A stretch of 35,642 nucleotides of DNA from Candidatus Omnitrophota bacterium (GCA_031386565.1 JANNCL010000267.1:1-35642), one strand, 5' to 3'. Shown: positions 2,954 to 35,642, counted from the first letter of the stretch. Numbers and translations: made by a program. Notes: generated by a model from the sequence alone, not told the origin.

Positions 2954-5900
2954 ATGCTTCGGAAGCTAGGGTGCCTCTTTTTAACTTTTTTACTATTGCC
3001 ATTTTCCCAACTACAAGCGGATCAAATAGTTCTGCCTGTCCCCGGAACCATGGTACGGCTAAGCCCTGCCTATGAGCCTCCGTTATTAAAAGGTATTAAG
3101 GTCCATCCTGAGAATCCGTTTCGTTTCGAATTCGTTTTGGATCGTGGCGATCAAAAATCTACCGTAGGGGCGGATCGTGATCCGCCCTTTTTAAAAGAAG
3201 AATCCAAAAAATTGATCAAATATTTCCTAGCCGCCTTAACCACCCCCGAAAAAGATCTCTGGGTCAACTTAAGCCCCTACGAAAAAGACCGCATCGTGCC
3301 GGAGAGTTTTGGCCAGACTGAGATGGGCCGCGACCTTTTAGCGCAAGACTATATTTTAAAGCAAATTACGGCAAGTTTGGTTTATCCTGAAGGGGATATT
3401 GGTAAAAGGTTTTGGAAAAAGGTATATGAGTCAGCCGGGAATAAAAATGTTCCTGTTAATACGTTCAATAAAGTATGGATCATGCCTGATAAGGCGGAGG
3501 TGTATGAGAATACAAAGACCGGCACGGCGTATATTGTGCGGTCCAGTCTAAAAGTATTGACTGAGCAAGACTATCTTGCCACCAACAAAAACACAACCGT
3601 AGGGGCCGATCTTGTGTCGGCCCGCCATGCCGGGCGGACACAAGGTCCGCCCCTACGAAATACCGATAATTCCAAGATCATACGTGACCTCGTCATCCCA
3701 GAATTAACCAAAGAAATAAACCAAGGCCAAAACTTCGCCCAATTACGTCAAGTTTACAACAGCCTGATACTTGCCACCTGGTACAAAAAGAAGATCAAAG
3801 ACAGCATCCTCTCACAAGTATATGCCGATAAGAACAAGATCAAAGGCACAGAATACGATCAAAGCATTATTTCCCCTCCCCTTGTGGGAGGGGCCAGGGG
3901 AGGGGTACGATCCCAAGGACAAAAAGACGAGTCCCCCCTCCCTAACCCTCCCCACGATGGGGGAGGGAAGAATGACGTCGAAGCCATCTACGCCCGCTAT
4001 TTACAAGCCTTCAAAAAAGGCGCCTACAATTATATCAAAGATACTGACTTGCCTAACGGCCGGACAGTACCTACGAAATATTTCTCCGGCGGGGCGCGAT
4101 TTGATATGGCGATGATGACGACAACGGAAGAGTTAAGTGATCTACATCTTAGCCAAGCGGTGATCGTTCAGGCAAATATGGAACAAGCCATTTTTAAGGA
4201 ACCTGATGCTGCCATGTCGCATGACGAATCAATGCATAAATTACTTCTTGAGGCTATGTTATGGTATATGAACAGAGATCCTGAGCTGTCTCAACAAATG
4301 GTGGTTGCTCATCATGAGGAAGATCTTGTAAGAAAGTTTTTTCTTGGCAGAAAGGTTTTAAATGTTGCGCCGGAAGAAATTTCTTTTTCGGATATTCTAT
4401 TGGAGCAGAATATCATGACGGATATGAGGCAAAAAGGTATCGATGCAAGGGCTCTAGCTCCCGTAAACAAGCATCCACTTTGGGAAAAAGAAAGTTTCTA
4501 TCAAGGAGTGGTGGAAGATATGCATATGATCAATGCTGACACATTTGATGATATTGTCATTGCTAGATTATTTGATCCTGATTATTGGGAAACTACTGTA
4601 GGGAAGCAATTAGGCCAGACGGTAGAACAAAGAAGGGCTCTTTATCCCAGGATCGCAAAAGAATTAAAACGGGTACTTAGAGATAAAGGCAGGCTTTTTA
4701 TGCTTTCTATGGACGGCAATCCGTATTTATTCGAAGCTTTAAGGCACGAAGGGTTTAAGGTTTTTTCTTTAAAGTTAGATAAGAACAATCAGTTATTTGG
4801 CACGCTTTTAATTAACGACAAAACCATTATAGAATACGGAAATGGTGTTGGAAGAACAGACTTCGGCAGTAATCAAGCCATGCTTTCGCTTGCGGACAGT
4901 ATGGCATGGGGGGATGCGAAGGAAGATGCGGGGGTATATTTCAGGCTTAAGGCATTTTTGGATAAGGATGATCTTAAAGATCTGCAGCAATATGATCCGC
5001 AACAGCGCGCGCAATTGATCGCGCTTTGGTTGAAGGTGCGTTGGGCGAAAGCATTTCCTACGGATCATTGGCGATTATTAGAATCCGTCAGAAGCATCAT
5101 CGTAAATTATTTGTTAAAGAATACGTTATTGACGCACAGGGAACGCAATGAGGGGGCGATAGGGGAATTCGCTAAGTTTGGGATGCCCCGCTTTCAAGCG
5201 GAGATGCTGCTGCATTGGGCAGAGGATGTATTTAATGGCAAGTCGGATGCTCGATTCACGTTCCATCAATGGGCGGTGGCGTCCCATGTAGGGGATGCGC
5301 AAAATGCCGTGGATAAATTTGGTGTCATTGTTGGGCTTAATGAAGAGCAGAAAAATGAATTGATCCAGTATCTTTTAGGACAGAGTGAAAGGCTGTACCG
5401 TGATGCCGAAGAACAACAAAAGTTCGACGCTATTTGGCTGGCAGTCAAGTACAAATGGTCCGAGGATTCTTTTAAGCGGTTCATGAATGAACATATGATG
5501 ACGCATATCGATCCCGAAGCGCGTCAGATCTTAAGGCAGGAGGCTTTGGAAGATCTCCCGATGCAGGGACGGGAGAGGTTATATACCCGTCAACAGATCG
5601 CGGACATGGCCAATGATGCGGGCGTGCTTTGGAATCGTTGGGAGTGGATTAAGGCCAGGCAGCCTGCGATCGAGCGGATGGCGGCGCCGTTTAATGGTGT
5701 TGAAGCAAGAAAACGGGCCATTATTTTTGGAAGATTGCTGGAGCTTAATCTAGCACAACAGAAAGACGTAGAGAGTTATCTTTTAGGCGCCCTCGAAAGG
5801 GTATTTGTTGACAATACAGAGCAGCAAAAATTTGATGCTGTTTGGCTGGCAGTGAAATATGGATGGACAGGAGAATCGCTGGTTCGGTTCGTTCAAAATA

Positions 5901-8900
5901 AAATAATTTTCCACATCGATCCAAAGGCTGCGGGATTCTTAAGGAGGGAAGTCCCAGATCACCTTAGGATCTTCCGTTCTGAGAAGTCTGGCGGCTTCTC
6001 TGATGGGGAGATCTTCGCTATGGCTCATGATGCCGGGTTACTTTATGAAACGCGTTGGGAGGTAAAGCATATTAATCAGGAGTCTCAACACGTGATGCAG
6101 GTCATTGAAGAGAAGCTGGCCAAATCTGTCCCGTTAACCCGCGCGCCTAAGATCGAACCGGAGGTCACACAAAGGATCCAGCAGGCCGAGCAAAAGGCCG
6201 ACCTGTTTTTCGAAGATTTGCATGCGTTAAGCACCCTGCCTCCGGCGCAGTTCGTAGAAGAGTTATTGCAGAAGATGGTTATCCAAGAGCCTAATTTTGA
6301 GCGTATCCTTTCAGGGCAGGCGGCCTTGCCGGATAATTGGCAGGACGATGTTGCTGCGTTCGCGAAACGTCTGGATCAACGCTGGCAAGCGTGGGGTGCA
6401 GATGGGATATCCATGCAGCAAAGATTTGGCTCGATCTATTCAGTGATGGCCTTGAGGATCGGAGCCGATTTATTTGCTACTTACGAGCAGGCGGTATTGA
6501 CACACGCATGGTTTTTTGCTTTTGTTTCAGCTGCTCCTCCGGAGGCTATGGTTGAAGCATTGCACATGATCACATCCTCGCATATCATCCATTTAAGGCT
6601 TCATGGGATGCATCCATATTCAGATAAGTTGTTTGAAAGGCCAGTGAGTTTAGATGTTGATACTCTTTATGGAAGAAAGGGCAGGAGTGTTGGTGTTTTA
6701 AGAAATTACTTGGAAGCATTCAAGCCCCTAAGGTCAAAGGTATTTGACCAACGTTTTGAATATGATTTTTTATGGGGTCTGGTGATGGGATCAGACCCAT
6801 CCCCACTTGATCCCAGATATGCGGAGAATCATTCTAACGATCAGGTTAATGTTCTTAAGCAGGGCAAGTCTGATGATGAATTCTTTAGGAATTCATTAAG
6901 AGAAGCTGTCGAACAGCTCGACATTGATCCGCGAGAGTTTGAATTGTTGTTATTGGAAGCGTTAGCTATTTCAGATCAAGAATGGGAAGCGATGGGCTAT
7001 GTTTCTCCTTATAAAATTAAGATGGGACATGAAATCAGTGATTTTTACATTGCTGCCGCGCAGAAAAAACATGTTCTACCCACTGGGCCTGTATCCTTAA
7101 TGAGCCCAGATCCTGGATTGCTTGAATTCAGAGGGGTCTTTTTAAAGAACTACAATAAGGTTTTCGAAGGAAGGGAAAGTTTAAGGGACTACTACATAGA
7201 ATCCTGGTCCGCGCTGTACCCCAGTCTGGCGGGAATAAAAGATCGTGCTCAGACTGCCGACGATAAGGCGGTTTCTGAGAGTTCATGGTTGGATCAGATC
7301 ATTAAGGATCCCAAGATTGACAAGATCAGTGAAGGTGTTCATGTGCGTCGGATCACTTTTTTGAATACGGCTTTGGTTATGGAAATATGGTTATCCGATA
7401 CACGGCAACATGGGATAGACGCTGTTGTTGTCAATGAAGGATTCCCATCTGCTAAAAAGAAAGAATTCAGGAATATCCCTAGACGCTTGGTTTTTGACAA
7501 TAGCGCTGGTATTGAAAAGCGAAAAAGCATGGTGTATACGCTTATGGATTTCTTAGCCGGTGAAATTCTTGTGCAGCGCATCGCGGCCAATCACAAAGCT
7601 TCCAGAGAACTAGAGATCCAGCATAAGGATGAGTATTTGGATGAGAAAGTAAGTGCGGATCTTCAAGGACTTATTGGATTTGGGAAGTTTATTAAGACGA
7701 TTGTTTATATGATTTTTGGCAAAACAGGTTTAATGTACGAGAATCTTTTAAATACAAAATCGAGGTTTTTAAAAGCGGTTTTACGCTTAAATGATACGGA
7801 TTTTTTAAAACAGAAGCCGCAGCTGGGACGAACTTATCAGGTTGTATTTCGTGAGCAGTATTATGGCAAGATATCTATTTCGATGGATGATCGAGATCAG
7901 TTTTATGTTGTTTTGATAGAACAAATGTACGGTCGACCATTATGGAGGCGTATCCCCATAGCACAATATGATCATTTATCGGATATTATAAAAGTTACCC
8001 TTGATTCTATAGAGCAAGAGATCGGGCAGACAGCGGTTCCAGGACAGGGGGTAGATCGGGCTATGGTACAAGGTCAGGGGGCCGACCGTATTAGAAGAGG
8101 ATTGTTGGTGAGTATTGCTTCATCACTATCGTTTTCTCCCCAAGCGGCTGTGATCGAATTTCCTACATATGATGAAGAAAGGGTTACGGGGCAAGTTCCC
8201 GGTTATGTACAAAGCGTGATCGGCAGATGGTTCCCCAGGTATAAAATTATCCTTACACAGGGTGGGGATCAGATTTTATGGGATGAAAGAACCAAAACGC
8301 TGCGTTTTAACAGGGAGCGTTTTGAGGGAATGAACGATGATCAGCTATTTGCGGCCTTGGCTGCAGATACGGCATATTATGGAGTGAAACTTTTTGCTAA
8401 AGATAATGACGCGCTGATGCAAATGGGTTTTATAGGTGCGGAGACGATCGCGCGGGCAAAGAAAATGCTTGTTTTTGACCATCTAGTGTCAGATGGCAAG
8501 ATACCTGTTACTTCAACAATGCAGGAGGAGCAGCTGCTTAGCAAGGCTTTTCTGGCCTTGATCGAACAGCGTCATAAGCTGGTGGATTTTGAAGGGTACA
8601 GCCTTGAAAAGGCCACGCTTGAAAAACCGCTTGTGGATAATAACGGTTTTTTGCAGCAGAGGGTTGTAAGCATTGCTCTGGAAAACTTGAATACGCGCTT
8701 AAAGAAACGCGTTTTAGCAAAGGTTGTCATGGATCTTCAGAGCGGAAAGAATAAAGTTACTTTCATGCCGATGGAAGATAGTGCTCAAATCAGTTCCATT
8801 GACTCAAAGCGCGGGGGTATTGATCTTACTAGTGACAAGATGGATTTAAAGCTTAAAAGCGATGGTGGGGCTATCCGGTTCAAGATGGATCCGGCTCAAT

Positions 8901-9019
8901 TAAAAGCGTTGCAAGAAGCTCCGGGTTTGATCCCTTCTATTGTTAACATGCGCACTTTGCCCGCAGGACAGGAAGGCATCAACATCTTAAAGTTGTTTTT
9001 AGGGGTTCAGGCTCCTTAG
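2954..9019 (+). CDS. Giant secreted modular protein, paralog 1 (2021 aa): conserved N-module + orphan ~1500-aa cargo + conserved C-terminal tail; function unknown
   Basis: Uninterrupted 6066-nt ORF with signal peptide MLRKLGCLFLTFLLLPFSQLQA. The N-module aligns with 11889-14906 (45/58 identical over KYFLAALT..YPE) and with 35400-35642 (36/39 identical over LPVPGTMV..LD+G). The tail GGIDLTSDKMDLKLK..GLIPSIV aligns with the paralog 2 tail. Confidence 0.9.
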   Translation: MLRKLGCLFLTFLLLPFSQLQADQIVLPVPGTMVRLSPAYEPPLLKGIKVHPENPFRFEFVLDRGDQKSTVGADRDPPFLKEESKKLIKYFLAALTTPEKDLWVNLSPYEKDRIVPESFGQTEMGRDLLAQDYILKQITASLVYPEGDIGKRFWKKVYESAGNKNVPVNTFNKVWIMPDKAEVYENTKTGTAYIVRSSLKVLTEQDYLATNKNTTVGADLVSARHAGRTQGPPLRNTDNSKIIRDLVIPELTKEINQGQNFAQLRQVYNSLILATWYKKKIKDSILSQVYADKNKIKGTEYDQSIISPPLVGGARGGVRSQGQKDESPLPNPPHDGGGKNDVEAIYARYLQAFKKGAYNYIKDTDLPNGRTVPTKYFSGGARFDMAMMTTTEELSDLHLSQAVIVQANMEQAIFKEPDAAMSHDESMHKLLLEAMLWYMNRDPELSQQMVVAHHEEDLVRKFFLGRKVLNVAPEEISFSDILLEQNIMTDMRQKGIDARALAPVNKHPLWEKESFYQGVVEDMHMINADTFDDIVIARLFDPDYWETTVGKQLGQTVEQRRALYPRIAKELKRVLRDKGRLFMLSMDGNPYLFEALRHEGFKVFSLKLDKNNQLFGTLLINDKTIIEYGNGVGRTDFGSNQAMLSLADSMAWGDAKEDAGVYFRLKAFLDKDDLKDLQQYDPQQRAQLIALWLKVRWAKAFPTDHWRLLESVRSIIVNYLLKNTLLTHRERNEGAIGEFAKFGMPRFQAEMLLHWAEDVFNGKSDARFTFHQWAVASHVGDAQNAVDKFGVIVGLNEEQKNELIQYLLGQSERLYRDAEEQQKFDAIWLAVKYKWSEDSFKRFMNEHMMTHIDPEARQILRQEALEDLPMQGRERLYTRQQIADMANDAGVLWNRWEWIKARQPAIERMAAPFNGVEARKRAIIFGRLLELNLAQQKDVESYLLGALERVFVDNTEQQKFDAVWLAVKYGWTGESLVRFVQNKIIFHIDPKAAGFLRREVPDHLRIFRSEKSGGFSDGEIFAMAHDAGLLYETRWEVKHINQESQHVMQVIEEKLAKSVPLTRAPKIEPEVTQRIQQAEQKADLFFEDLHALSTLPPAQFVEELLQKMVIQEPNFERILSGQAALPDNWQDDVAAFAKRLDQRWQAWGADGISMQQRFGSIYSVMALRIGADLFATYEQAVLTHAWFFAFVSAAPPEAMVEALHMITSSHIIHLRLHGMHPYSDKLFERPVSLDVDTLYGRKGRSVGVLRNYLEAFKPLRSKVFDQRFEYDFLWGLVMGSDPSPLDPRYAENHSNDQVNVLKQGKSDDEFFRNSLREAVEQLDIDPREFELLLLEALAISDQEWEAMGYVSPYKIKMGHEISDFYIAAAQKKHVLPTGPVSLMSPDPGLLEFRGVFLKNYNKVFEGRESLRDYYIESWSALYPSLAGIKDRAQTADDKAVSESSWLDQIIKDPKIDKISEGVHVRRITFLNTALVMEIWLSDTRQHGIDAVVVNEGFPSAKKKEFRNIPRRLVFDNSAGIEKRKSMVYTLMDFLAGEILVQRIAANHKASRELEIQHKDEYLDEKVSADLQGLIGFGKFIKTIVYMIFGKTGLMYENLLNTKSRFLKAVLRLNDTDFLKQKPQLGRTYQVVFREQYYGKISISMDDRDQFYVVLIEQMYGRPLWRRIPIAQYDHLSDIIKVTLDSIEQEIGQTAVPGQGVDRAMVQGQGADRIRRGLLVSIASSLSFSPQAAVIEFPTYDEERVTGQVPGYVQSVIGRWFPRYKIILTQGGDQILWDERTKTLRFNRERFEGMNDDQLFAALAADTAYYGVKLFAKDNDALMQMGFIGAETIARAKKMLVFDHLVSDGKIPVTSTMQEEQLLSKAFLALIEQRHKLVDFEGYSLEKATLEKPLVDNNGFLQQRVVSIALENLNTRLKKRVLAKVVMDLQSGKNKVTFMPMEDSAQISSIDSKRGGIDLTSDKMDLKLKSDGGAIRFKMDPAQLKALQEAPGLIPSIVNMRTLPAGQEGINILKLFLGVQAP
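3164..3187 (+). repeat. Single REP-like unit (GTAG + 8-bp hairpin) inside the paralog 1 CDS
   Basis: GTAG GGGCGGAT CGTG ATCCGCCC: perfect 8-bp stem with a 4-nt loop. It is translated as TVGADRDPP. Confidence 0.7.
3599..3656 (+). repeat. 58-nt REPIN-like inverted doublet (two hairpins) read in frame inside the paralog 1 N-module
   Basis: GTAG GGGCCGAT CTTGT GTCGGCCC GCCATGCC GGGCGGAC ACAAG GTCCGCCC CTAC. The outer ends are GTAG/CTAC and the two loops are complementary. It encodes VGADLVSARHAGRTQGPPL. Confidence 0.85.
3873..3967 (+). repeat. C-tract/G-tract triple-hairpin cluster inserted in frame in paralog 1 only
   Basis: Three arm pairs: CCCCTCCC (3873-3880) / GGGAGGGG (3886-3893) with loop CTTGT; GGGAGGGG (3898-3905) / CCCCTCCC (3935-3942); CCCTCCCC (3946-3953) / GGGGAGGG (3960-3967). 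It encodes SPPLVGGARGGVRSQGQKDESPLPNPPHDGGG. Paralog 2 is 24 codons shorter here. Confidence 0.8.
5336..6070 (+). repeat. Internal tandem duplication (~136-aa unit, 2 copies) within the paralog 1 cargo
   Basis: Unit 1 starts at LNEEQKNELIQYLLG (5336) and unit 2 at LNLAQQKDVESYLLG (5744). 22/37 residues are identical over EQQKFDA[IV]WLAVKY..HIDP.A, and both units end with DAG[VL]L...RWE[WV]K. Confidence 0.8.
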
Positions 9020-9078
9020 GGACATAATCTTGACTATTAATAATGGTCATGATAAGCTTGGTTGAGGAGGATCTATAT

Positions 9079-9306
9079 ATGATCATTGCCGCGGGAAAAT
9101 TTAAAGCACAATGTTTAAAGATCATGGATGAAGTGCACAATCATCATCGGGAAGTGATTGTTACGAAATATGGAAAGCCTTTTGTCAAATTGACGGGGAT
9201 AAAATCAACGCCTAAAAAATCGTTATTTGGTTTAATGAAGGGGTCTGTGACCATCCATGAGGATATCATAGGGCCGTCCGGGGATAAGTGGGATGCCGAA
9301 AAGTAA
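9079..9306 (+). CDS. Phd/YefM-family antitoxin (VapB-like)
   Basis: MIIAAGKFKAQCLKIMDEVHNHHREVIVTKYGKPFVKL is a typical Phd/YefM N-terminus. GAGGAGG lies 7-8 nt upstream of ATG 9079, so the ORF-track start at 9043 is unlikely. It overlaps the PIN gene by 14 nt. Confidence 0.8.
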   Translation: MIIAAGKFKAQCLKIMDEVHNHHREVIVTKYGKPFVKLTGIKSTPKKSLFGLMKGSVTIHEDIIGPSGDKWDAEK

Positions 9307-9730
9307 TGGATCACAAGCGAAAACATTGCTTTTAGATACGCATGTTTGGCTTTGGCTGATCAATGATAGCGATCAGCTTAAGGGGGCCCGAATAGTCGGC
9401 CACATTGAAGAGTACGCGCAACACAACGGATTAAGGGTTTCCGCGATCTCTGTGTGGGAGATCGGGATGCTGGTTGCGAAGAAAAAGATCACGCTCTCTA
9501 AAGATGTTTTTTTATGGGTAAAAGAGTCGCTTAAAGAAAACGGGTTGACTGTTGAGCCTTTGAGCAATGAGATCTTATTAGAAAGCAATCTTTTAGATGT
9601 TCACGGCGATCCTGCGGACCGGATGATAATAGCTACAGCAAAATTAACGCACGCGGCGATAATGACCGCAGATAAAGCCATCATTCAGTTCTGCCGTAAG
9701 CATGATATGGAAGTTGTGCCGGTAAGCTAA
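9293..9730 (+). CDS. vapC: PIN-domain toxin VapC
   Basis: LLLDTHVWLWL (first acidic Asp), SVWEIGML, DPADRMIIATA and MTADKAI match the PIN acidic residues. It overlaps the upstream antitoxin. Confidence 0.85.
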   Translation: MPKSNGSQAKTLLLDTHVWLWLINDSDQLKGARIVGHIEEYAQHNGLRVSAISVWEIGMLVAKKKITLSKDVFLWVKESLKENGLTVEPLSNEILLESNLLDVHGDPADRMIIATAKLTHAAIMTADKAIIQFCRKHDMEVVPVS

Positions 9731-10839: not shown

Positions 10840-11820
10840 ATGTTGAAATTAGTAGTTTCAGTCATAGCTTTTGCGTATGTCTGTGCCTTAAGCGTCTATG
10901 CCGGGGATGAGTATGTACAGACGCGGTCTAAGGCATTGGCGCATTTTATCATGGCTGAGATACACGATTTTAACGGCAACAGCACCGATGCGATCACGGA
11001 GTACGAACGGTCTTCTGCCTTAGACAGGGCGCAACCTTTACCTCATTTGCATCTTGCCTCTTATTATGCCCGGGCCGGGCTTTTGACGAAAGCCCAGGAA
11101 CAGTTAAAAGATGTAGCGGCCATCGAACCAAACAATGCCCAAGCGCATTATCTGATGGCGTTGGTATATTCTTCCCAAAAAAAATATGATCTGGCGGCCA
11201 AAGAATACGAGCTAATCATTTCCTCTAAGCTTGATAGTACTCCTGAGAATCTTGATATCCATACTAATTTGGCCCAGCTGTATTTTTCCCAGAAAAAGTA
11301 TTCCAAAGCCATCGAAGAGTTCCAGCAAATTGTGATCATTGAGCCGAATAATACTTCTGCCTATTATTTAATGGGCTCTTCGTTCTTAGAGATCAATGAT
11401 CAGCAAAATGCCAAGGAACAATTTAAGAAAGTTCTGAAATTAGAACCGGGCAATGACGGGGCGCTTAATTCTCTGGCGTATATTTATTCCCAATTAGGCG
11501 AAAATCTAGATGAAGCGTTGGTACTGGCCAAGAAAGCCGTTGAGATCGATGCAACCAACGGCGCTTATTATGACACCTTGGGTTGGGTGCTGCATCAAAA
11601 AGGGTTGCAGACGGACAGTTTATTAGCGTTACAAAAAGCAGAAATGTATATCAAAGACCCGGTATTGTATGACCATATGGGTGATGTTTATAAGTCCATC
11701 GGCGAATTCGCTCTGGCGCGTAAATATTGGCGTAAATCCATTGAGCTTGATCCTAAGCAAAGCAGTGTTCAGGAAAAGATCAGTAGTTTAGAAAAGATCC
11801 AAGCCTTAAAAGAGCAGTAA
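10840..11820 (+). CDS. Secreted tetratricopeptide-repeat (TPR) protein
   Basis: Signal peptide (LVVSVIAFAYVCALSVYA) followed by repeated A..Y..LA.aY...g.y..A...f.kal.l.P.n units. Confidence 0.8.
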   Translation: MLKLVVSVIAFAYVCALSVYAGDEYVQTRSKALAHFIMAEIHDFNGNSTDAITEYERSSALDRAQPLPHLHLASYYARAGLLTKAQEQLKDVAAIEPNNAQAHYLMALVYSSQKKYDLAAKEYELIISSKLDSTPENLDIHTNLAQLYFSQKKYSKAIEEFQQIVIIEPNNTSAYYLMGSSFLEINDQQNAKEQFKKVLKLEPGNDGALNSLAYIYSQLGENLDEALVLAKKAVEIDATNGAYYDTLGWVLHQKGLQTDSLLALQKAEMYIKDPVLYDHMGDVYKSIGEFALARKYWRKSIELDPKQSSVQEKISSLEKIQALKEQ

Positions 11821-11888: not shown

Positions 11889-14800
11889 ATGCGGAAAACG
11901 ATATTTAGCCTAGTTTTGGTCAGCTTCTTGATCAGTAACATCAATATTCCTTTGCTTAGGGCAGGGGAAGTTGTTGTGCCCATCATGCCCAAGCCGGGCA
12001 CCATGGTTTCTTTAAGTCCTATCTTTACCCCGGCTTATCTTAAAGGGATTGTTATTCATCCCGACAATGCCCTGCAATTCGACTTTTTGATCAACAAAGG
12101 CGATGGAAATTTAAACACTCAAGAAAAGAATCAGGAATATACTAAACTAGTCAAATACTTCCTGGCGGCACTCACCGTCCCGGATCAAGACCAATGGGTG
12201 AACTTAAGCCCGTATGAAAAAGACCGCATTATTAAAGATGACTTCGGCAAGACCGAAATGGGCCGCGACCTTTTGGGTCAAGATTATTTGTTAAAGCAGA
12301 TCACCTCATCTTTAATGTATCCCGAATCTGGTTTAGGCAAAAATTTCTGGGATAAAGTCTATGCCAAAGCCCAAGAAGAATTTGGCAACACCAATATCCC
12401 CGTCAACACATTCAACAAAGTCTGGATCGTGCCAGATCAAGCCATTGTTTATGAAAGCGGCAATATTGCGTATGTAGGGCGCAGTCATTTGAAAGTGATG
12501 TTGGAAGAAGATTATCTTGCCATCAACAAAAATAAATCCGTAGGGGAGGACCTTGTGTCCTCCCGCCATGCCGGGCCGATACAAGATCGGCCCCTACAAA
12601 ATACCGATCAAGCACAAATAATCCGTGAACTCATCCTCCCCGAATTAGAAAAAGAAGTCAACCAAGGCAAAAATTTCGCCCAATTACGCCAAGTTTTTAG
12701 CGGCATGATCCTAGCCACTTGGTATAAAAAAGCATTGAAAGAATCTTTGTTAGCCAAAATTTACGCAGATAAAAATAAAACTAAAGGAACGGGATATACA
12801 AAAAGCATTCTCAACCGAAGCCAACCTGGGAAACAACCAAACGACATCGAGCTTGTGTACCAGCAATACCTCCAAGCCTTTAAGAAAGGCGTATACAACT
12901 ATATTAAAGAGGACACAGACAAATACACACATCAACCCATTCCCAGAAAATATTTTGCGGGTGGGGTGAATGGCATTCCAAAAAATGTTCTAGAAGTACG
13001 CCAAGGCACAAGCCCGGCAATGACGGCGGAAGTAAACACCCTTGATGCCGCGCAAGTTAGTTTAGATAGTAAAAAAGCAGATGCGGCGATGAATATTCAA
13101 GAAATACAATCTTACAGCCAATGGGTAGTTCGGATATTGACGACCGGTGTACCGTTGACATTTACAACTGTTTCAGCTCAGGCAGCACAATTTCAAGAAT
13201 TTGTATCAACATATCCTTGGTTAGCAACGGGTTCTGCAATAGGGCTGACGGCTGCAACATGGTTTGGGTATTATTTGTGGAGTATGTTTCATACGTTAAA
13301 GGGAATGGGGCGTGCTTATGACCAGAAAATAGTGAGCAAGGAACAATTTCGTGCGTGGCTAGATGAATATCTTCCCACACAAAGCGACGCAATATTGATT
13401 GGCTTATTGAACCACCGACAGATGGCAGTTCGGGAAAAATCTGCGGAAATATTAGTGCGTTTGAAAACTAGAAGGGCTTCTCAAGAAGAGGTGATCCAAG
13501 CATTGTTGGGAAGACTTGGCGATTATGATCCTGTTCATCAGAGGGCATTATTAGGATTGAAGGAATTAGGAGTAAGCCAAGAACTCCTATTGAGCGAATA
13601 TCATGTCATTGTCTGGAATGCAGATAACTCAACATTTATGCGCTTGGGAGGAGACTCCGAACGCTCCTCTTTTGAGTCTGTTAACAAAGCCATCAAATTT
13701 TTTAGTGAAATAGGTGAACAAGGCAGGGATGAATTAGTTGCTATAGGTAAAAATCATCCAAGTGAAGGTGTTCGAAAGCGAGCGGGAGAAATTGTATCCA
13801 GGATAGTATGGGATTATGGGACATGGGGTTCAACTTATACTTTGGATGATGTCGAAATGGCAATAAAAATGTTAGGAAGAATGGGGTCGGTAGGGTTGTA
13901 TGAATTATCCAGAATAAAAGGGGAAGATCTTGACCGCAGGGTTATTGAAATGGCGAAAAATCAAATAGACGCGGCGATGGGGGAGAATTTGAGTTATAAG
14001 GGCAAGGACTTTGAAATCAGCTCGCAAGGACTATTGATTGGCACAATATATTCAATTTATTTTCTTTTACGTGAAAGGGCTATTGCTTCGAAGCATCCAA
14101 CGATTGCATTTGACCTAGATGGAACGATTGCTTTTTGGAACGGGAGTGAATATCTGATAAGACCCGGAATCGAAGAACAAATCCGTAAGCTTAAACAAAG
14201 GGGTTTTCGTATAGTTTTATGGACGTCAGCACCAAGAGAGCATGTTCGTGTTAACTTTATTGAAAAGAATTCTGCAATTGCTAATTTTTTTGATTTAGTT
14301 ATTTCCAGAGAAAGTTTCAGCCCTTTAATAGAAAATGAGCAAGCAATGAAAGGCGTTTATGCAAGATTTATGAAGATTCCAGTAAGTGATTTTATGGAAA
14401 GAATTCATAGAACATATTTTGCGACTAACAATGATTGGGGATTTAAGGATTTTTTGTTGCTGGGATACAAGTTCTTAGTTGATGATACACCGCTCAAGAT
14501 TTTAAAAGGTCAGCCTTATCCTCTAATCCAAGAGTACAAGATGAGGTACATGCAGGCGGGATTTTTCTACACTAATTCTCAAGGAGTGAGTCTGGGTGAC
14601 GATTATCCGATAGGAAATCTAGCTGATACGATTCAAGAAAAAATTGAGCAAGCTGACAAATCATTTGGTGGTGGTACTGATGTTGATGTGGCTGGAAATG
14701 TATTAGATGCGGCGATGAAAGATCCCGGCGGTATTGACATGAACTCCGCTAATTTGGATTTGCAGATTAAGCGTGATGGTAAAGGGGTGCCTTTGCCGCT

Positions 14801-14906
14801 TTCTCAGCAAGATATGGCGCTGTTGTCTCGTATTGAAGGATTTGTTCCGCGTATCATTGCAATCAAACCTGCCTCTTCATTGCCGATCTTTAGTAAAATA
14901 CAGTAA
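11889..14906 (+). CDS. Secreted modular protein, paralog 2 (1005 aa): conserved N-module + TM segment + HEAT-like repeats + HAD-superfamily phosphatase domain + conserved tail
   Basis: Signal peptide, then an N-module homologous to paralog 1. Hydrophobic helix WLATGSAIGLTAATWFGYYLW. HEAT-like units (HRQMAVREKSAEILVRL, HPSEGVRKRAGEIVSRI). HAD motifs: FDLDGT (14109-14126), LWTSA, VDDTP (~14478-14492). Tail: GGIDMNSANLDLQIK..GFVPRII. Confidence 0.9.
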   Translation: MRKTIFSLVLVSFLISNINIPLLRAGEVVVPIMPKPGTMVSLSPIFTPAYLKGIVIHPDNALQFDFLINKGDGNLNTQEKNQEYTKLVKYFLAALTVPDQDQWVNLSPYEKDRIIKDDFGKTEMGRDLLGQDYLLKQITSSLMYPESGLGKNFWDKVYAKAQEEFGNTNIPVNTFNKVWIVPDQAIVYESGNIAYVGRSHLKVMLEEDYLAINKNKSVGEDLVSSRHAGPIQDRPLQNTDQAQIIRELILPELEKEVNQGKNFAQLRQVFSGMILATWYKKALKESLLAKIYADKNKTKGTGYTKSILNRSQPGKQPNDIELVYQQYLQAFKKGVYNYIKEDTDKYTHQPIPRKYFAGGVNGIPKNVLEVRQGTSPAMTAEVNTLDAAQVSLDSKKADAAMNIQEIQSYSQWVVRILTTGVPLTFTTVSAQAAQFQEFVSTYPWLATGSAIGLTAATWFGYYLWSMFHTLKGMGRAYDQKIVSKEQFRAWLDEYLPTQSDAILIGLLNHRQMAVREKSAEILVRLKTRRASQEEVIQALLGRLGDYDPVHQRALLGLKELGVSQELLLSEYHVIVWNADNSTFMRLGGDSERSSFESVNKAIKFFSEIGEQGRDELVAIGKNHPSEGVRKRAGEIVSRIVWDYGTWGSTYTLDDVEMAIKMLGRMGSVGLYELSRIKGEDLDRRVIEMAKNQIDAAMGENLSYKGKDFEISSQGLLIGTIYSIYFLLRERAIASKHPTIAFDLDGTIAFWNGSEYLIRPGIEEQIRKLKQRGFRIVLWTSAPREHVRVNFIEKNSAIANFFDLVISRESFSPLIENEQAMKGVYARFMKIPVSDFMERIHRTYFATNNDWGFKDFLLLGYKFLVDDTPLKILKGQPYPLIQEYKMRYMQAGFFYTNSQGVSLGDDYPIGNLADTIQEKIEQADKSFGGGTDVDVAGNVLDAAMKDPGGIDMNSANLDLQIKRDGKGVPLPLSQQDMALLSRIEGFVPRIIAIKPASSLPIFSKIQ
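12540..12597 (+). repeat. 58-nt REPIN-like inverted doublet read in frame inside the paralog 2 N-module (same site as 3599-3656)
   Basis: GTAG GGGAGGAC CTTGT GTCCTCCC GCCATGCC GGGCCGAT ACAAG ATCGGCCC CTAC. Both stems are perfect. It encodes VGEDLVSSRHAGPIQDRPL. Confidence 0.85.
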
Positions 14907-24174: not shown

Positions 24175-24414
24175 GTGGTGCCTACAATTTTAGTTGTTGG
24201 ATCCTATAGGTTCTTCTTTTACTCAAGTGATGCGCAAGAACCAATTCATGTGCATGTTCAGTCTGGCGTTTGTTCGGCAAAATTTTGGATAAATCCTACT
24301 CGTTTGCAATCATCGAAAGGGTTTAATCATCGGCAGATAACTGAGATCATGAAACTTGTAGAGAAGAACTCTGGGCTTTTTGAAAGGAAATGGCATGAAT
24401 ACTTTAACTCTTGA
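24175..24414 (+). CDS. DUF4160-family small protein
   Basis: FFFYSSDAQEPIHVHVQSG..AKFWINP...W.EYF is the DUF4160 pattern. GTG start (24175 or 24178) follows GAAGGAGGA. Confidence 0.75.
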   Translation: MVPTILVVGSYRFFFYSSDAQEPIHVHVQSGVCSAKFWINPTRLQSSKGFNHRQITEIMKLVEKNSGLFERKWHEYFNS

Positions 24415-24694
24415 ACACACAAGTGTCGCGACCAAGCTGACGTTTTCTGATGATTCTTTTACGGTTTATTTAGATGACGGAAGGAATATCAATATCCCAT
24501 TAGCATGGTACCCCAGGCTTTTGTCAGGGAATAAGAAAGAGCGTGAACAGTATGAATTTATTGGCGGAGGCGAAGGTGTGCATTGGCCGAAGCTTAATGA
24601 AGACATTCAAGTAGAAGGTCTTTTAGCCGGACGGGCATCTCAAGAAAGTCAAAGCTCCCTAAAGAAATGGTTTCAAAAACGGAACAAGAAATAA
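24395..24694 (+). CDS. DUF2442-family small protein
   Basis: LDDGRNINIPLAWYPRL...EFIGGGEGVHWPKLNEDIQVEGLL is the DUF2442 pattern. It overlaps the DUF4160 gene. ATG 24395 is preferred over 24380. Confidence 0.7.
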   Translation: MNTLTLEHTSVATKLTFSDDSFTVYLDDGRNINIPLAWYPRLLSGNKKEREQYEFIGGGEGVHWPKLNEDIQVEGLLAGRASQESQSSLKKWFQKRNKK

Positions 24695-24699
24695 TCAAA

Positions 24700-24783
24700 A
24701 AATTCTTCAAAGATTACGTCAAATTCGTGAATTTGGAAGGATCTTCGGTCAATAAATCTTTCTCCACGCATATTACAAATTGA
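24700..24783 (+). pseudogene. Orphaned alternative dnaB 3' end (direct repeat copy B plus its own 14-codon tail and stop)
   Basis: Reads KFFKDYVKFVNLEGSSVNKSFSTHITN*, compared with the dnaB end KFFKEYVKFANLETAHGQ*. There is no start codon or upstream helicase sequence. Confidence 0.6.
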
Positions 24784-24832
24784 TGGGAATAGAAGGTGAC
24801 AGTTGAGATAAAAAGAGTGGTGGAAGATCGTA

Positions 24833-25171
24833 TTAGTTTATAGCGGTATTTTCTTGAATGGTTTTATATAAAGCTAGTAATAATTTTGCGCTATTAAAGC
24901 TTTTCTTATTCAATAGTTTTCTGAGTTGTTGTAAAGATTCTGCTTCCTCGGTTCCTTCAGGTGCTTTTTTAACGAGCTCACATAATTCAATCTCTAAAAC
25001 TTTTGCTATGCGGTTAAGCGTATGCAAAGACGGCTGTTTTAAGCCCCTTTCAATCAACCCAATATAGTTATCGCTAAGCTCTGTTTTTTCTGCTAATTGG
25101 GCTTGAGTTAATCCACACTGCTCTCTATAAGAGCGAACTCTTTTGCCAACCTGTTGGTAAGGATTTTCCAT
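24833..25171 (-). CDS. XRE-family helix-turn-helix transcriptional regulator
   Basis: GKRVRSYREQCGLTQAQLAEKTELSDNYIGLIERG..PSLHTLNRIAKVLEI (HTH_3). GGAGG lies 7 nt upstream of the ATG at 25171 (minus strand). Confidence 0.85.
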   Translation of the reverse strand: MENPYQQVGKRVRSYREQCGLTQAQLAEKTELSDNYIGLIERGLKQPSLHTLNRIAKVLEIELCELVKKAPEGTEEAESLQQLRKLLNKKSFNSAKLLLALYKTIQENTAIN

Positions 25172-25319
25172 TAAAAACCTCCATGACGGATATATTAATT
25201 GCATTTAATGGCGCCTTCCAGATACCAATGGTTGTTATTTTATGTTGAAATAATAACTATCAGTGTGTATTATGATTTTGATCTATCTGATAAATATTTT
25301 ATTCTGGGAATATCAACAT

Positions 25320-25925
25320 ATGTCTATGAGGCTTAACTTAGGGTGTGGGACAAAAAAGCGTGAGGGCTGGATCAATATTGATTCTGCTAAAGAATGTGAT
25401 CCAGATGTCCTGCATGATTTAACTGAGCCATTACCTTTTGAAGACCAATCCGTGGATGAAATAATGGTTGATGCGGTTTTAGAGCATTTTGATAAATATG
25501 CACGCTATTTTATCTTGTACGATTGGGTAAGAGTTCTGAAGACGGGCGGTTGTATTTCGATTGGGGTTCCAAATTTTCAGAAGATTTTGTTTCGTTATTT
25601 CAAGTGGGGATTTGATGATCTTGTTGACACTATCTTTGGTGAGACTATGTGGGAGTCAAAATATTACATTGGTCATTTCGGAAGTCATAAATGGGGGTAT
25701 TCGGATAAAAGTTTAAAGAGTTTTCTGGAATGTTTTGGTATAAGTCGTATTGAAGTTCAAAAACATGGCCTTATCCTCACCGCTAAAGGAATAAAATCGA
25801 GGCATATCTCTTATCAAGATTTGAAAAATTCTCGGATTTACTCTCCCAATAATGCCTGTGGCACAGGAAGGGCATTTATGACTTTAGATGAAGTTAAAGA
25901 AGTTGCTAATTTTAAGGTTAGGTAA
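25320..25925 (+). CDS. Class I SAM-dependent methyltransferase (Methyltransf_11/23-like)
   Basis: LNLGCGTKKREGWINID (motif I), VDEIMVDAVLEHF, RVLKTGGCISIGVPN. The ORF-track GTG at 25263 adds an implausible hydrophobic leader. Confidence 0.7.
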   Translation: MSMRLNLGCGTKKREGWINIDSAKECDPDVLHDLTEPLPFEDQSVDEIMVDAVLEHFDKYARYFILYDWVRVLKTGGCISIGVPNFQKILFRYFKWGFDDLVDTIFGETMWESKYYIGHFGSHKWGYSDKSLKSFLECFGISRIEVQKHGLILTAKGIKSRHISYQDLKNSRIYSPNNACGTGRAFMTLDEVKEVANFKVR

Positions 25926-25930
25926 AATGC

Positions 25931-26707
25931 ATGGCAGTTAAGATTTCCATTGTCATTCCCGTAAAGAACGAGGAATTGCGCATCAGGCGATGTTTGGATT
26001 CGCTTAAAGGATGGGTAGATGAAATTATTATTTTAGACGATAATTCAGATGATCGAACTGCTGTCATTGCGTGTGAAGAATATGGGGCTGTTGTAATAAA
26101 GCAGTCACTAGAGAAAGATTGGTCAAAACAAAGAAACAGGGGCGCATTAGCTAGTCGCAATGACTGGATATTACAATTGGATGCTGATGAAGTTGTTCCT
26201 AGACAAACAGCACGAATCATTGAGAATGTTCTTAATAAGGATGTAAAAGAAAAGGCCTTTTCTTTAACAAGGGTCAATGTTTTGGCGAATAAGCCCTTGT
26301 TGCATTGTGGCGCTGGAGAATATGTCAGATTGTATGACCGTAGGTCAGCAGCATGGGAAGGGGAAGTTCACGAGCAATTGCGCGTTCAAGGTTGTGTGGC
26401 TAAAATCGATGGGTGTATTGAACATTATCCTGTTGATTCCATGGAATATTTTCTAGGAAAGAATCTCTTTTACGCCAGAATATCAGCAGGACAATTTGTT
26501 AGTAAAGTTGCGTCTTTAGAAGCAAGAGAGATCCGTTCTCGACTAACAGTTAAGGTATTGAAATTATTCTGGAAGAGTTATGTGAGAAAGAAAGGTTATA
26601 GGGATGGGATGCAAGGGTTGATATGGTGTGTTTTAAACATCATGACATCCCAAATGTATTGGCTTATGGTCTGGGAGAAAGCCAGTAACAGCGGGAAGCT
26701 TAAGTAA
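25931..26707 (+). CDS. Family 2 glycosyltransferase
   Basis: ISIVIPVKNEE...CLDSL..WVDEIIILDDNSDDRT and LQLDADEVV (DxD-type motif). Confidence 0.85.
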   Translation: MAVKISIVIPVKNEELRIRRCLDSLKGWVDEIIILDDNSDDRTAVIACEEYGAVVIKQSLEKDWSKQRNRGALASRNDWILQLDADEVVPRQTARIIENVLNKDVKEKAFSLTRVNVLANKPLLHCGAGEYVRLYDRRSAAWEGEVHEQLRVQGCVAKIDGCIEHYPVDSMEYFLGKNLFYARISAGQFVSKVASLEAREIRSRLTVKVLKLFWKSYVRKKGYRDGMQGLIWCVLNIMTSQMYWLMVWEKASNSGKLK

Positions 26708-27552
26708 TGAAAATCAGTGGCTGTACCATTGTCCGGAATGGAATTAGACTACAATACCCTATTGTTGAATCCATATGCTCGATTTTGCCGATCTGTGATG
26801 AGTTTATTGTCAATGTAGGGGACAGTGATGATGGGACGCTTGCCTTAATCCAAAGCATTGGGTCGCCCAAACTGAAAATAATCGAAACTGTATGGGATTT
26901 TACTAATAAAGAGAAAGTTTTATCCCAGCAGACAAATGTTGCGATCGGCCATTGTACGGGAGACTGGATTTTTTATCTACAAACAGATGAGGTTGTACAC
27001 GAATCGGATTTACTAAAGATAAAAAGATGTATGGAAGACAATTTAAGAAACTGCGCGGTTGATGCGCTGCGTTTTAGATGGTTTCATTTCTTTGGAAGTC
27101 ATTTTCGTTATCGTATTGACAGGGGCTGGTATCAAAAACAGGATCGGATTATTCGCAATGATGGGGGCATTGAATCTTACGATGATGCTTTTTCTTTTCG
27201 ACGCAAGAATGGACAATCGTTGCGCATAAAAAGCACAGGTTGCTTTATTTATCATTATGGCTGGGTCTTTACTCCTGAGGAAATGGCAAAACGTCGGATA
27301 AATTCTGGTAAAATATGGGGCGATGACCGTTCACGGGAGGAAAAGACCGGCAGGTATGAGTTTGGGAATTTGAAGCGTTTTCCTATTTATTTTGGAACGC
27401 ATCCTAGTGTTATGAGGGATTTGATCGCAAAACATGAAGTTAGTCGGAAGGATTGGAGTCAAATACGCAGTTGGTATTTCTGGAATCCTATTCTTTGGAT
27501 GCGTCTGAGGTATAAAACAGGATATCGAGTAAAGCATCGGATAGAAGATTGA
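26707..27552 (+). CDS. Glycosyltransferase family 2-like protein
   Basis: ISGCTIVRNG...CDEFIVNVGDSDDGT and FYLQTDEVVHE. Its start overlaps the preceding stop. Confidence 0.65.
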   Translation: MKISGCTIVRNGIRLQYPIVESICSILPICDEFIVNVGDSDDGTLALIQSIGSPKLKIIETVWDFTNKEKVLSQQTNVAIGHCTGDWIFYLQTDEVVHESDLLKIKRCMEDNLRNCAVDALRFRWFHFFGSHFRYRIDRGWYQKQDRIIRNDGGIESYDDAFSFRRKNGQSLRIKSTGCFIYHYGWVFTPEEMAKRRINSGKIWGDDRSREEKTGRYEFGNLKRFPIYFGTHPSVMRDLIAKHEVSRKDWSQIRSWYFWNPILWMRLRYKTGYRVKHRIED

Positions 27553-27581
27553 ATGTAAAATTTGCCTGAGATAGAGTGTAA

Positions 27582-28304
27582 ATGAAAATATATAGGAATA
27601 TATATCTCGCTGAGCACATTGAAGGTTTCTTGACCACGCGAGAAGGACAATTATTGTATTCTATGGCGCGGGCATGCCATGGTTTAGGGGTAATCGTAGA
27701 GATCGGATCCTGGAAAGGAAGATCCACTATATGGCTTGCTTCTGGTTTACAAGATGGCTCTTCTAAATCCATTCTTTATGCAATTGATCCTCACACTGGT
27801 TCTCCTGAGCATCAGGGAGAAAATAGTGTTTGGACATTTGATCAGTTCCAATCGAATATAACGGCAGCCGGATTGCAACATGTTATAAAGCCATTAATCA
27901 AAACTTCCGTTGAAGCGATAAGTCACATCAATGATAAGATAGAATTGCTTTTTATTGATGGGGCACATGAATATGAGGCTGTCCGGCTGGATTATGAGCT
28001 TTTTCGTCCGTTGGTGACTAATGGGGGATTTATAGCTTTTCATGATTCTTCTTGGCCTGGCGTTGATCGGCTACTAAATGAAGTTCTGATCAAAGATGGA
28101 TTTAAAGATGTCTATTTTACTGACACACTGTTTTTCGGAATAAAGATACCCCAAGCAACACGCAAAGATCGATTAAAGAATATTATTATGTTGTCGCTTA
28201 ATCGGCAATTTTATAGCACTTGTCGCTCTAAGTTTCCCAAGGCTATTCGCTCATTGCAGAAGAATTTGATCAAGTTGTGCAGAGAAATAATTTATCGTTC
28301 TTAA
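27582..28304 (+). CDS. Class I SAM-dependent methyltransferase (Methyltransf_24 / CmcI-like)
   Basis: VIVEIGSWKGRSTIWLA, LLFIDGAHEYEAVRLDYE, GGFIAFHD. Confidence 0.65.
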   Translation: MKIYRNIYLAEHIEGFLTTREGQLLYSMARACHGLGVIVEIGSWKGRSTIWLASGLQDGSSKSILYAIDPHTGSPEHQGENSVWTFDQFQSNITAAGLQHVIKPLIKTSVEAISHINDKIELLFIDGAHEYEAVRLDYELFRPLVTNGGFIAFHDSSWPGVDRLLNEVLIKDGFKDVYFTDTLFFGIKIPQATRKDRLKNIIMLSLNRQFYSTCRSKFPKAIRSLQKNLIKLCREIIYRS

Positions 28305-28391
28305 AATAGTTTAAAATTGATTGTTTGATTTCATTCTTCTTAACATCCCTAAAAAATTCGTTAATCTAGGTATAAATATTTTTTTTGTCAA

Positions 28392-28420
28392 TTGACATGA
28401 CAAACCCCAGCCCTTATAAT
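28392..28420 (+). promoter_or_regulatory. Consensus sigma70 promoter directly abutting the bamA start codon
   Basis: TTGACA (28392-28397), exactly 17 nt, TATAAT (28415-28420). ATG 28427 lies 6 nt after the -10 box and there is no SD. Confidence 0.6.
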
Positions 28421-28426
28421 TCCACC

Positions 28427-35399: not shown

Positions 35400-35642
35400 A
35401 TGCCTCGAAGATTTTTAAGTTTAATCCTATCTATATGTTTATTGCCTTTGCCGCAAGTCTATGCAGCAGAAGGACTTTTAAGCTTGCCTGTGCCTGGGAC
35501 TATGGTACGGCTAAGCCCTGCTTATGAACCGCCACTATTAAAAGGCATTAAAGTTCATCCTGATAATCCGTTTCGTTTCGAGTTCATTTTAGATAAAGGA
35601 AACGAAACGCCCGCCGTAGCCAAAGGCGAAAGCACTTTGGCG
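35400..35642 (+). CDS. Secreted modular protein, paralog 3 (first 81 codons only; runs off the window; absent from the ORF track)
   Basis: My translation from ATG 35400 is MPRRFLSLILSICLLPLPQVYAAEGLLSLPVPGTMVRLSPAYEPPLLKGIKVHPDNPFRFEFILDKGNETPAVAKGESTLA. 36/39 residues are identical to paralog 1 after the signal peptide. The nucleotide differences I checked are mostly synonymous. Confidence 0.85.
   Translation, partial: MPRRFLSLILSICLLPLPQVYAAEGLLSLPVPGTMVRLSPAYEPPLLKGIKVHPDNPFRFEFILDKGNETPAVAKGESTLA

Follow-up and report, generated by a model that had tools for sequence, protein, structure and literature searches.

What kind of protein keeps both of its ends in common with a nearby gene product while carrying an unrelated middle? 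The question is raised by a 35,642-nucleotide (nt) stretch of DNA from a Candidatus Omnitrophota bacterium (GCA_031386565.1 JANNCL010000267.1:1-35642; hereafter the window), in which the open reading frame (ORF) at 11889..14906 encodes a protein of 1005 amino acids (aa). An earlier note on this DNA, the original prediction, regarded it as the second of two paralogs that place different cargo between a shared N-terminal module (N-module) and a shared tail. BLASTP bears out that description: paralog 1 (ORF 2954..9019) matches over the N-module (aa 23-360, 55% identity, E 2e-122) and over the tail (aa 947-993, 30% identity, E 3e-5), and no match was found beyond these two regions, leaving the middles unrelated. 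What had been taken for a two-paralog curiosity turns out to be a single representative of a family that spans the phylum, counts thousands of members and has a cassette grammar of its own. The ORF is real, and it is one member of a very large, multi-copy family restricted to Omnitrophota.

A family with constant ends and variable cargo

The family plan consists of a Sec-type signal peptide, an N-module of ~335 aa, one or more cassettes separated by the short motif [D/N]xAM, and a tail of ~60 aa. In the ORF at 11889..14906 the cassettes are two, an all-helical segment of ~290 aa followed by a predicted capless phosphatase of the haloacid dehalogenase (HAD) superfamily of ~240 aa. The parts of the protein are arranged as follows (AF2, AlphaFold2; pLDDT, predicted local distance difference test):

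11889..11963, + strand: predicted Sec-type signal peptide, aa 1-25 (MRK, hydrophobic core, LRA|GE); Kyte-Doolittle value 2.11, cleavage site placed by eye
11964..12965, + strand: conserved N-module, aa 26-359, ending in KYFAGG; 55-73% identity to 71 homologs
12966..13091, + strand: linker, aa 360-401, with DAAQVSL and the first DAAM; low pLDDT, family consensus DxAxVxL...DxAM
13080..13091, + strand: junction motif 1, DAAM, aa 398-401
13296..13967, + strand: all-helical cassette, aa 470-693, with weak HEAT-like similarity (Pfam match at aa 501-557)
13968..13979, + strand: junction motif 2, DAAM, aa 694-697
13980..14705, + strand: HAD cassette, aa 698-939, including a conserved N-terminal extension, YKGKDF...FLLRERAIAS; located by profile, alignment, AF2 and Foldseek
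14706..14717, + strand: junction motif 3, DAAM, aa 940-943
14727..14903, + strand: conserved C-terminal tail, aa 947-1005, GGIDMN...GFVPRIIAIKPASSLPIF; conserved in homologs

A search with the full-length protein returned more than 4,325 proteins, each covering ~36-46% of the query, which corresponds to the N-module, with cargo that varies among them; the few that are named belong to Candidatus Omnitrophota or Omnitrophica. At the level of loci, at least 582 were found with one genome per species scanned, all of them in Omnitrophota metagenome-assembled genomes, some of which are labelled "uncultured Planctomycetales". Family loci are many per genome and dispersed, with several genomes supplying 5-8 of the best 80 loci. 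As far as the available text of those sources extends, the family is not described in the literature on Omnitrophota giant proteins, on sorting signals or on the V. archaeovorus proteome.

The N-module contains ~60 invariant residues, with no His or Cys among them, and its AF2 model has a pLDDT of 71.9 and a predicted TM-score (pTM) of 0.73. The tail, which follows the pattern GGID...GFxPxIIxIxP, is present in ~117 of the 120 top homologs, 54-79 aa from the C-terminus. It has no match in Pfam, NCBIfam or PDB (profile search), and a search with a tail profile returned solely fragments of at most 123 aa, mostly on short contigs. Together with the junction motif, the N-module and tail make three new sequence features for which neither Pfam nor NCBIfam nor PDB has an entry.

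The N-module and the tail each fall into two main subtypes (N1 and N2; T1 and T2), which correspond in 163 of 167 complete proteins; the enclosed cargo varies. This agreement could reflect functional coupling of the two ends or simply their shared descent. The window holds three copies of the family:

2954..9019, + strand: paralog 1, 2021 aa, with N1-type N-module, unrelated cargo and T1-type tail; DxAM at aa 384, 418 and 1701
11889..14906, + strand: the whole ORF discussed here, family member "paralog 2" (N2/T2), 1005 aa plus stop
35400..35642, + strand: start of a third member, N1-type like paralog 1, with signal peptide and the first ~60 aa of the N-module (tblastn E 2.5e-11, and translation)

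The third copy begins MPRRFLSLILSICLLPLPQVYA|AEGLLSLPVPGTMVRLSPAYEPPLLKGIKVHPDNPFRFEFILDKG and is truncated by the end of the window and contig. A scan for promoters and terminators gave nothing above chance, and no clear Shine-Dalgarno sequence was seen ahead of the ATG of the ORF at 11889..14906.

A Pfam scan of 49 members found no domain in 43, receiver (REC) domains in five and DnaJ in one. Precomputed annotations of relatives add cNMP-binding, HATPase, PP2C, PrmA, LysM, PP-binding and HEAT domains. The receiver cassettes retain the phospho-acceptor Asp together with the acidic pocket, and they also have the conserved Thr and Lys. In three members (P0065, P0042 and P0098) the REC cassette begins directly after DxAM; such intact receivers behind a signal peptide and N-module are odd for a domain expected to lie outside the cytoplasm.

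In the protein at 11889..14906 the three DAAM sites coincide with the borders between N-module, helical cassette, HAD cassette and tail, and two of the three have identical DNA (GATGCGGCGATG). In the complete sequences of the 120 top homologs, 334 instances of D.AM were counted where 14 were expected; cargo interiors hold 173 instances where 7.5 were expected, a 23-fold excess that places it at the top of all 8,000 patterns of the form a.bc; N.AM ranks second, and all 173 D.AM contexts differ from one another. At least one copy is found in 111 of the 120 proteins and at least three in 63, with a median spacing of 163 aa, approximately the size of a domain. In both AF2 models the DxAM sites fall in low-confidence linkers. 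We infer that [D/N]xAM linkers are flexible junctions and candidate sites of proteolytic release. The Met of DxAM was also considered as an internal start codon and rejected: no ribosome-binding sequence lies ahead of any of the three DAAM sites, which makes internal initiation unlikely.

The HAD cassette and its helical companion

The original prediction saw a complete HAD signature in the second half of the cargo, and every element of it is present, including a motif III Lys:

14109..14126, + strand: motif I, FDLDGT, aa 741-746, with D742 (nucleophile) and D744 (acid/base); both Asp invariant in a 29-sequence alignment
14217..14231, + strand: motif II, LWTSA, aa 777-781, with T779; LVLWT strongly conserved in the alignment
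14445..14447, + strand: motif III, Lys853 in FKDF; invariant in the alignment
14478..14492, + strand: motif IV, VDDTP, aa 864-868, with D865 and D866; LVDD strongly conserved in the alignment

The roles given to D742 and D744 are those of the corresponding residues throughout the HAD superfamily. These catalytic residues align in profile searches as well, in which the baculovirus protein 38K is matched from motif I through motif IV. An exhaustive search of 1.84 billion representative sequences recovered 76 relatives at E<=1e-3, nearly all of which align to aa ~700-920 only, and a profile built from 29 such domains identified baculovirus 38K/AC98 (PDB 8i8b) as the best solved relative (E 3.5e-12). 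With the full-length protein the HAD matches stay below threshold (PF00702, 24.3 bits; TIGR01681, E 6e-5; TIGR01684, "viral phosphatase", E 1e-5), but the isolated domain clears the PF00702 cut-off with 27.4 versus 26.4 bits.

The predicted structure points in the same direction. An AF2 model computed from 32 sequences has pLDDT >90 over aa 700-920 and a Rossmann-like alpha/beta core. Foldseek matches this confident model to PDB entries for Pnkp1, the T4 PNKP phosphatase, 38K, MDP-1, HisB-N, lipin/Pah, Nir2 LNS2 and TIM50, and the first matches among viral models are 38K and CTD-like NIF phosphatases of giant viruses. Almost all of the 50 best matches listed have the HAD fold, with target TM-scores up to 0.55-0.58, and the best are capless HAD phosphatases. 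The matched HAD proteins lack a large cap domain, and for the majority the substrates are macromolecules or lipids. With motif I, motifs II-IV, the core fold and the Pfam score of the isolated domain all in place, the cassette is predicted to be an intact capless phosphatase of the NIF/FCP1/38K kind and a new member of a known superfamily.

Its place within that superfamily is less precise. The likeness to FCP1/NIF phosphatases that had been suggested for this protein holds for the clade: of 29 HAD relatives scanned singly at E<=0.01, Pfam NIF is found in 18, DUF705 (the 38K family) in 13 and PF00702 in 19, the profile and fold matches to 38K agree with this, and one relative that carries the N-module (P0122) clears the NIF cut-off with 26 versus 21.8 bits. 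It does not hold for the query itself, which gave no match to PF03031 (NIF) at E<=1 and scored 24.9 bits against a cut-off of 134 for TIGR01684, short of equivalog level; both values weigh against a closer assignment. The NIF matches among relatives thus indicate an affinity of the query to the clade and not membership, and the query is filed in neither the NIF nor the 38K family because it does not reach their thresholds.

Two features distinguish this type of HAD domain: an N-terminal extension, YKGKDFxI...FIxxERxxS in form, and an insert of helical structure that separates motif II from motif III. Within the extension, aa 714-727 (GLLIGTIYSIYFLL) were considered as a transmembrane helix and rejected, since in relatives they align with a conserved, mostly polar element (xFLxGxIFDxxFIxxERxxS); the segment is part of the HAD domain and not a membrane span.

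Both N-module subtypes include family members with the same cassette, which is also present in giant proteins unrelated to the family. The motif [D/N]xAM flanks it on both sides in P0140, P0172, P0150 and P0122, follows it in P0121, P0137 and P0135, and is lacking in those giant proteins that bear the domain without belonging to the family. To the HAD superfamily this contributes a bacterial clade of capless NIF/38K-like phosphatases that probably moves as a mobile cassette. The same HAD type with its FIxxERxxS extension lies inside proteins of 2,000-6,000 aa (P0125, P0131, P0142, P0147, P0158, P0162 and others), and stand-alone versions of 150-360 aa exist too.

Base composition bears on how the cassette was acquired. 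The cargo had been thought more AT-rich than the N-module, and this is correct for the HAD part, whose DNA has a G+C content (GC) of 36.7% and a third-position value (GC3) of 32%, within the lowest 2% of 675-nt windows; the N-module has 42.5% (GC3 47.8%) and the window as a whole 44.8%. The expectation fails for the helical cassette, which, at 41.9%, does not fall below the N-module. In addition, the nearest HAD relatives of the query, itself an N2/T2 protein, reside in N1/T1-ended proteins. The occurrence of these relatives in N1/T1 frames together with the foreign composition of the HAD DNA argues for internal cassette exchange between stable frames, and the internal cassettes have probably been exchanged between paralogs by recombination.

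The helical cassette is less readily classified. The case for HEAT/PBS-lyase-like units, as in the original prediction, is weaker than it was put: Pfam HEAT_2 (PF13646) scores 21.5 bits on aa 501-557 against a cut-off of 27.7 (E 2.8e-4) and stays below threshold. The region is predicted to be all-helical, and its sole library match is a genuine HEAT/NACHT protein (P0179, E 5.9e-6). The AF2 model shows ~11 helices at low confidence (pLDDT 40-80), and an exhaustive search of representatives gave no homolog for aa 402-693 as a unit. The label HEAT-like is plausible for this predicted structure.

Export, function and genomic setting

The N-terminus of the protein reads MRK, TIFSLVLVSFLISNINIPLL, RA|GE. 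We applied the usual features of a Sec substrate, namely a positive n-region, a hydrophobic h-region and small residues at -3 and -1, and by inspection all of those required for Sec and signal peptidase I are present. The n/h/c-region pattern is kept in ~100 of 108 family members, with Lys or Arg in the n-region and a c-region such as AQA|GE or (A/V)Q(A)|GE, while the exact residues vary from member to member. The protein is therefore likely to be exported via Sec with removal of its signal peptide, and the conservation of a predicted cleavable Sec-type signal peptide throughout the family makes the earlier suggestion of an exported enzyme or effector a reasonable one.

We rank first, and hold to be somewhat probable, a reading in which the protein is a Sec-exported carrier of exchangeable enzyme cassettes, its destination left unspecified. 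Export through Sec would be followed by removal of the signal peptide. The N-module and tail, which co-vary as matched subtypes, would be the constant handling or addressing parts and would presumably engage one common partner or place, be it the envelope, the cell surface or a host cell, and the cassettes would be exchangeable payloads. Of these, the HAD cassette would be a Mg2+-dependent phosphomonoesterase in which D742 forms an aspartyl-phosphate intermediate, with a macromolecule as its probable substrate. A phosphoprotein is the most likely one, since the nearest HAD relatives are without exception capless HADs of this kind. The helical cassette may serve as a binding scaffold, and [D/N]xAM as a flexible junction and possible cleavage site.

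Several observations weigh against this reading. The case for export is drawn from sequence features alone. The N-module found no match in Pfam, in NCBIfam, among PDB sequences (profile search) or among PDB folds (Foldseek), and since it has no recognisable fold or catalytic signature, its handling role is deduced solely from its conservation. No conserved neighbour gene, for instance for a transporter, protease or immunity protein, was found across 80 family loci. On the enzymatic side, the shortfalls against PF03031 and TIGR01684 given above are joined by the loss of the second Asp of motif I in about a quarter of the HAD relatives (e.g. FDLNGT, FDLSGT and FDLQQT), so that activity is not universal in the clade. 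Finally, classic cytoplasmic cassettes (REC with its phospho-acceptor residues, and DnaJ) stand behind a signal peptide. Domains of this type make little sense in the periplasm, which is the main puzzle of the family; their presence could be explained by delivery into another cell, by a receptor topology in some members, or by a failure to be exported at all.

The first of these possibilities is a more specific version of the plain export reading. The protein would be a multi-effector toxin resembling a small MARTX, in which the ends deliver cassettes into prey or host, a protease cuts at [D/N]xAM and the HAD domain attacks host phosphoproteins. Constant ends around variable, shuffled enzyme and signalling cassettes of cytoplasmic type are what such a toxin would show, as are many dispersed paralogs per genome and a highly enriched junction motif that recurs in low-confidence linkers at domain-size spacing (median 163 aa). 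The lifestyle of the phylum fits as well, Omnitrophota being described as ultra-small and host-dependent or predatory (PMC10066038; bioRxiv 10.1101/2023.11.21.568195). However, no protease domain, RTX repeat or pore-forming segment was detected with Pfam and NCBIfam, adjacent secretion or immunity genes were not found in the 80 loci, the N-module measures only ~335 aa and is without a known fold, and cleavage at [D/N]xAM is a proposal only. We therefore regard the toxin as possible but doubtful. Equally tentative is a broader proposal, an undescribed phylum-wide form of cargo delivery in which the novel-fold N-module and its matched tail would act as an addressing or translocation device, [D/N]xAM would be processed and the cassettes, among them intact receiver domains, DnaJ and NIF/38K-like phosphatases such as the present one, would be released as effectors into prey or host cells.

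The second possibility, a receptor, turns on whether the polypeptide crosses the membrane after the N-module. Two segments come into question:

13122..13178, + strand: weakly hydrophobic stretch, aa 412-430, WVVRILTTGVPLTFTTVSA followed by QA; Kyte-Doolittle value 1.15
13218..13280, + strand: segment proposed as a membrane helix in the earlier note, WLATGSAIGLTAATWFGYYLW, aa 444-464, uncharged and rich in aromatic and small residues; Kyte-Doolittle value ~0.8

The protein would be a type I membrane receptor with the N-module as periplasmic sensor, a span at aa 444-464 (perhaps with aa 412-430), and the helical cassette, HAD cassette and tail as cytoplasmic outputs. Its appeal lies in a charge-free run of 33 residues (aa 438-470) with a K/R-rich C-terminal flank (KGMGRAYDQKIVSK), which fits the positive-inside rule for an N-out/C-in protein after an exported domain, in the cassettes of relatives (REC, cNMP-binding, HATPase and PP2C), which are typical cytoplasmic signalling outputs, and in the ~15% of family members that have a clearly hydrophobic stretch 25-85 aa past the N-module.

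Hydrophobicity speaks against it. For a membrane helix we used a Kyte-Doolittle threshold of ~1.6 over about 19-21 residues. The best 19-aa window within aa 405-475 reaches 1.15, at aa 412-430, and no part of this region attains the threshold; with values of 0.8-1.15 the segments lie in the range of soluble enzymes encoded in the same window (up to 1.2-1.57), and the protein's own signal peptide scores 2.11. The mean value of ~0.8 contradicts the description of aa 444-464 as strongly hydrophobic, and the internal membrane helix and "split topology" built on it lose their support, the segment being only mildly hydrophobic and a span there unproven. In the AF2 model aa 450-478 form part of a single long helix (pLDDT 55-70), and no clean isolated helix is seen for aa 444-464. 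Moreover, ~85% of family members, REC carriers included, are without a strongly hydrophobic segment (Kyte-Doolittle >=1.6) in the first 160 aa past the N-module, so the tail would come to lie on differing sides of the membrane in different paralogs. A receptor is accordingly unlikely for this protein. The hydrophobic stretches past the N-module in that ~15% of members are rich in Ala, Gly and Leu (P0005, P0020, P0026, P0048, P0050, P0052, P0070 and others; in this ORF aa 412-430), and some resemble signal peptides or lipoboxes (e.g. LVQALVLAAALCSSGC). Such stretches may be relics of captured secreted proteins, or true membrane spans in a subset of members.

The last possibility is that the protein is not exported, the N-terminal hydrophobic segment not being a working signal and the N-module and tail holding assorted enzymes to a structure in the cytoplasm or to one another. 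Cassettes of cytoplasmic type (REC and DnaJ) with intact functional residues would then be at home, but the full signal-peptide pattern, conserved in ~100 of 108 members, renders this improbable. Just as improbable is a HAD cassette that is a pseudo-enzyme binding phosphate or another ligand, for although the second motif I Asp has been replaced in many relatives and two of the fold matches (TIM50 and Nir2 LNS2) are non-catalytic or lipid-binding HAD folds, the query retains D742, D744, T779, K853, D865 and D866.

The exported carrier, which we continue to prefer, lies among genes of mixed kind. A SurA-like chaperone/peptidyl-prolyl isomerase with a Rotamase_2 domain (1372-2841, - strand) lies divergently upstream of paralog 1, and a tetratricopeptide repeat protein with a signal peptide (10840-11820, + strand) ends 69 nt before paralog 2; across the 80 family loci neither neighbour is conserved. 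A Rotamase_2 isomerase is reported within a conserved secretion locus near Omnitrophota giant genes (bioRxiv 10.1101/2023.11.21.568195). Directly downstream of paralog 1 is an overlapping toxin-antitoxin pair (9043-9306 and 9293-9730, + strand), of which the first gene, an 87-aa ORF judged by sequence inspection only to be a Phd/YefM-type antitoxin, overlaps the start of the gene for a PIN-domain (VapC-like) toxin. Farther along, at ~24400-28300, two family-2 glycosyltransferases and a methyltransferase-like protein are encoded in a low-GC island (36-40% GC, GC3 33-38%) that lies immediately upstream of BamA (28385-30904) and may be a horizontally acquired surface-polysaccharide cluster.

Relation to known systems

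At the level of the enzyme, the closest comparison is with the NIF/FCP1/SCP phosphatases (PF03031) and the 38K/AC98 family (PF05152, TIGR01684), with which the cassette shares the capless HAD fold and the motifs DxDxT, (L/I)VLWT(S/A), the motif III Lys and DDxP. It differs from both in scoring below the NIF and TIGR01684 thresholds, in having its own N-terminal extension and helical insert, and in being an internal cassette of a signal-peptide protein.

At the level of architecture, several systems resemble the family in part. MARTX toxins likewise have conserved ends that frame a variable, recombining array of effectors, with short linkers as processing sites. The family differs from them in that Pfam and NCBIfam find neither RTX/glycine-rich repeats nor a cysteine protease domain, which places it outside the MARTX group, and in having a Sec signal instead of type I secretion, a size of ~1-2 versus 3.5-5 thousand aa, and a different phylum of origin. 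The polymorphic toxins (CdiA with VENN and Rhs with DPxGL) similarly combine a constant trafficking region, a short junction motif, swappable cargo and many paralogs. In the present family, however, the cargo lies inside the protein with a conserved tail behind it, it consists of signalling and enzyme domains and not of recognised toxins, and a conserved immunity neighbour was not found in the 80 loci, which sets the family apart from CdiA and Rhs. Cargo proteins of the type IX secretion system also have an N-terminal Sec signal, functional domains and a conserved C-terminal domain of ~60-80 aa shared by otherwise unrelated proteins; here, in contrast, the tail has no TIGR04183 or TIGR04131 match in NCBIfam, there is an additional 335-aa N-module, and the organisms are Omnitrophota and not Bacteroidota.

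The giant proteins of Omnitrophota come from the same phylum, and the same HAD type is found within those of 2-6 thousand aa. Two preprints list HAD_2 and HEAT_2 among giant-protein domains and describe signal peptides as common (bioRxiv 10.1101/2023.11.21.568195; 10.64898/2026.06.07.730766). The giant proteins with this HAD domain differ from the family in being without its N-module, tail and [D/N]xAM.

Omnitrophota are abundant, uncultured bacteria whose presumed way of life is to live on other cells or as predators of them, and the family, with dozens of copies in each genome, would provide a concrete handle on how they act on a host. The N-module, tail and motif could be converted into annotation models, and the questions of cleavage, localisation and substrate are directly testable with existing metaproteomes and recombinant domains. 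The closest functional analogues of the family are the modular effector toxins, although it carries the defining features of none of them. If its cassettes are indeed delivered to other cells, the family would constitute a miniature, Sec-dependent counterpart of the MARTX or polymorphic toxins.

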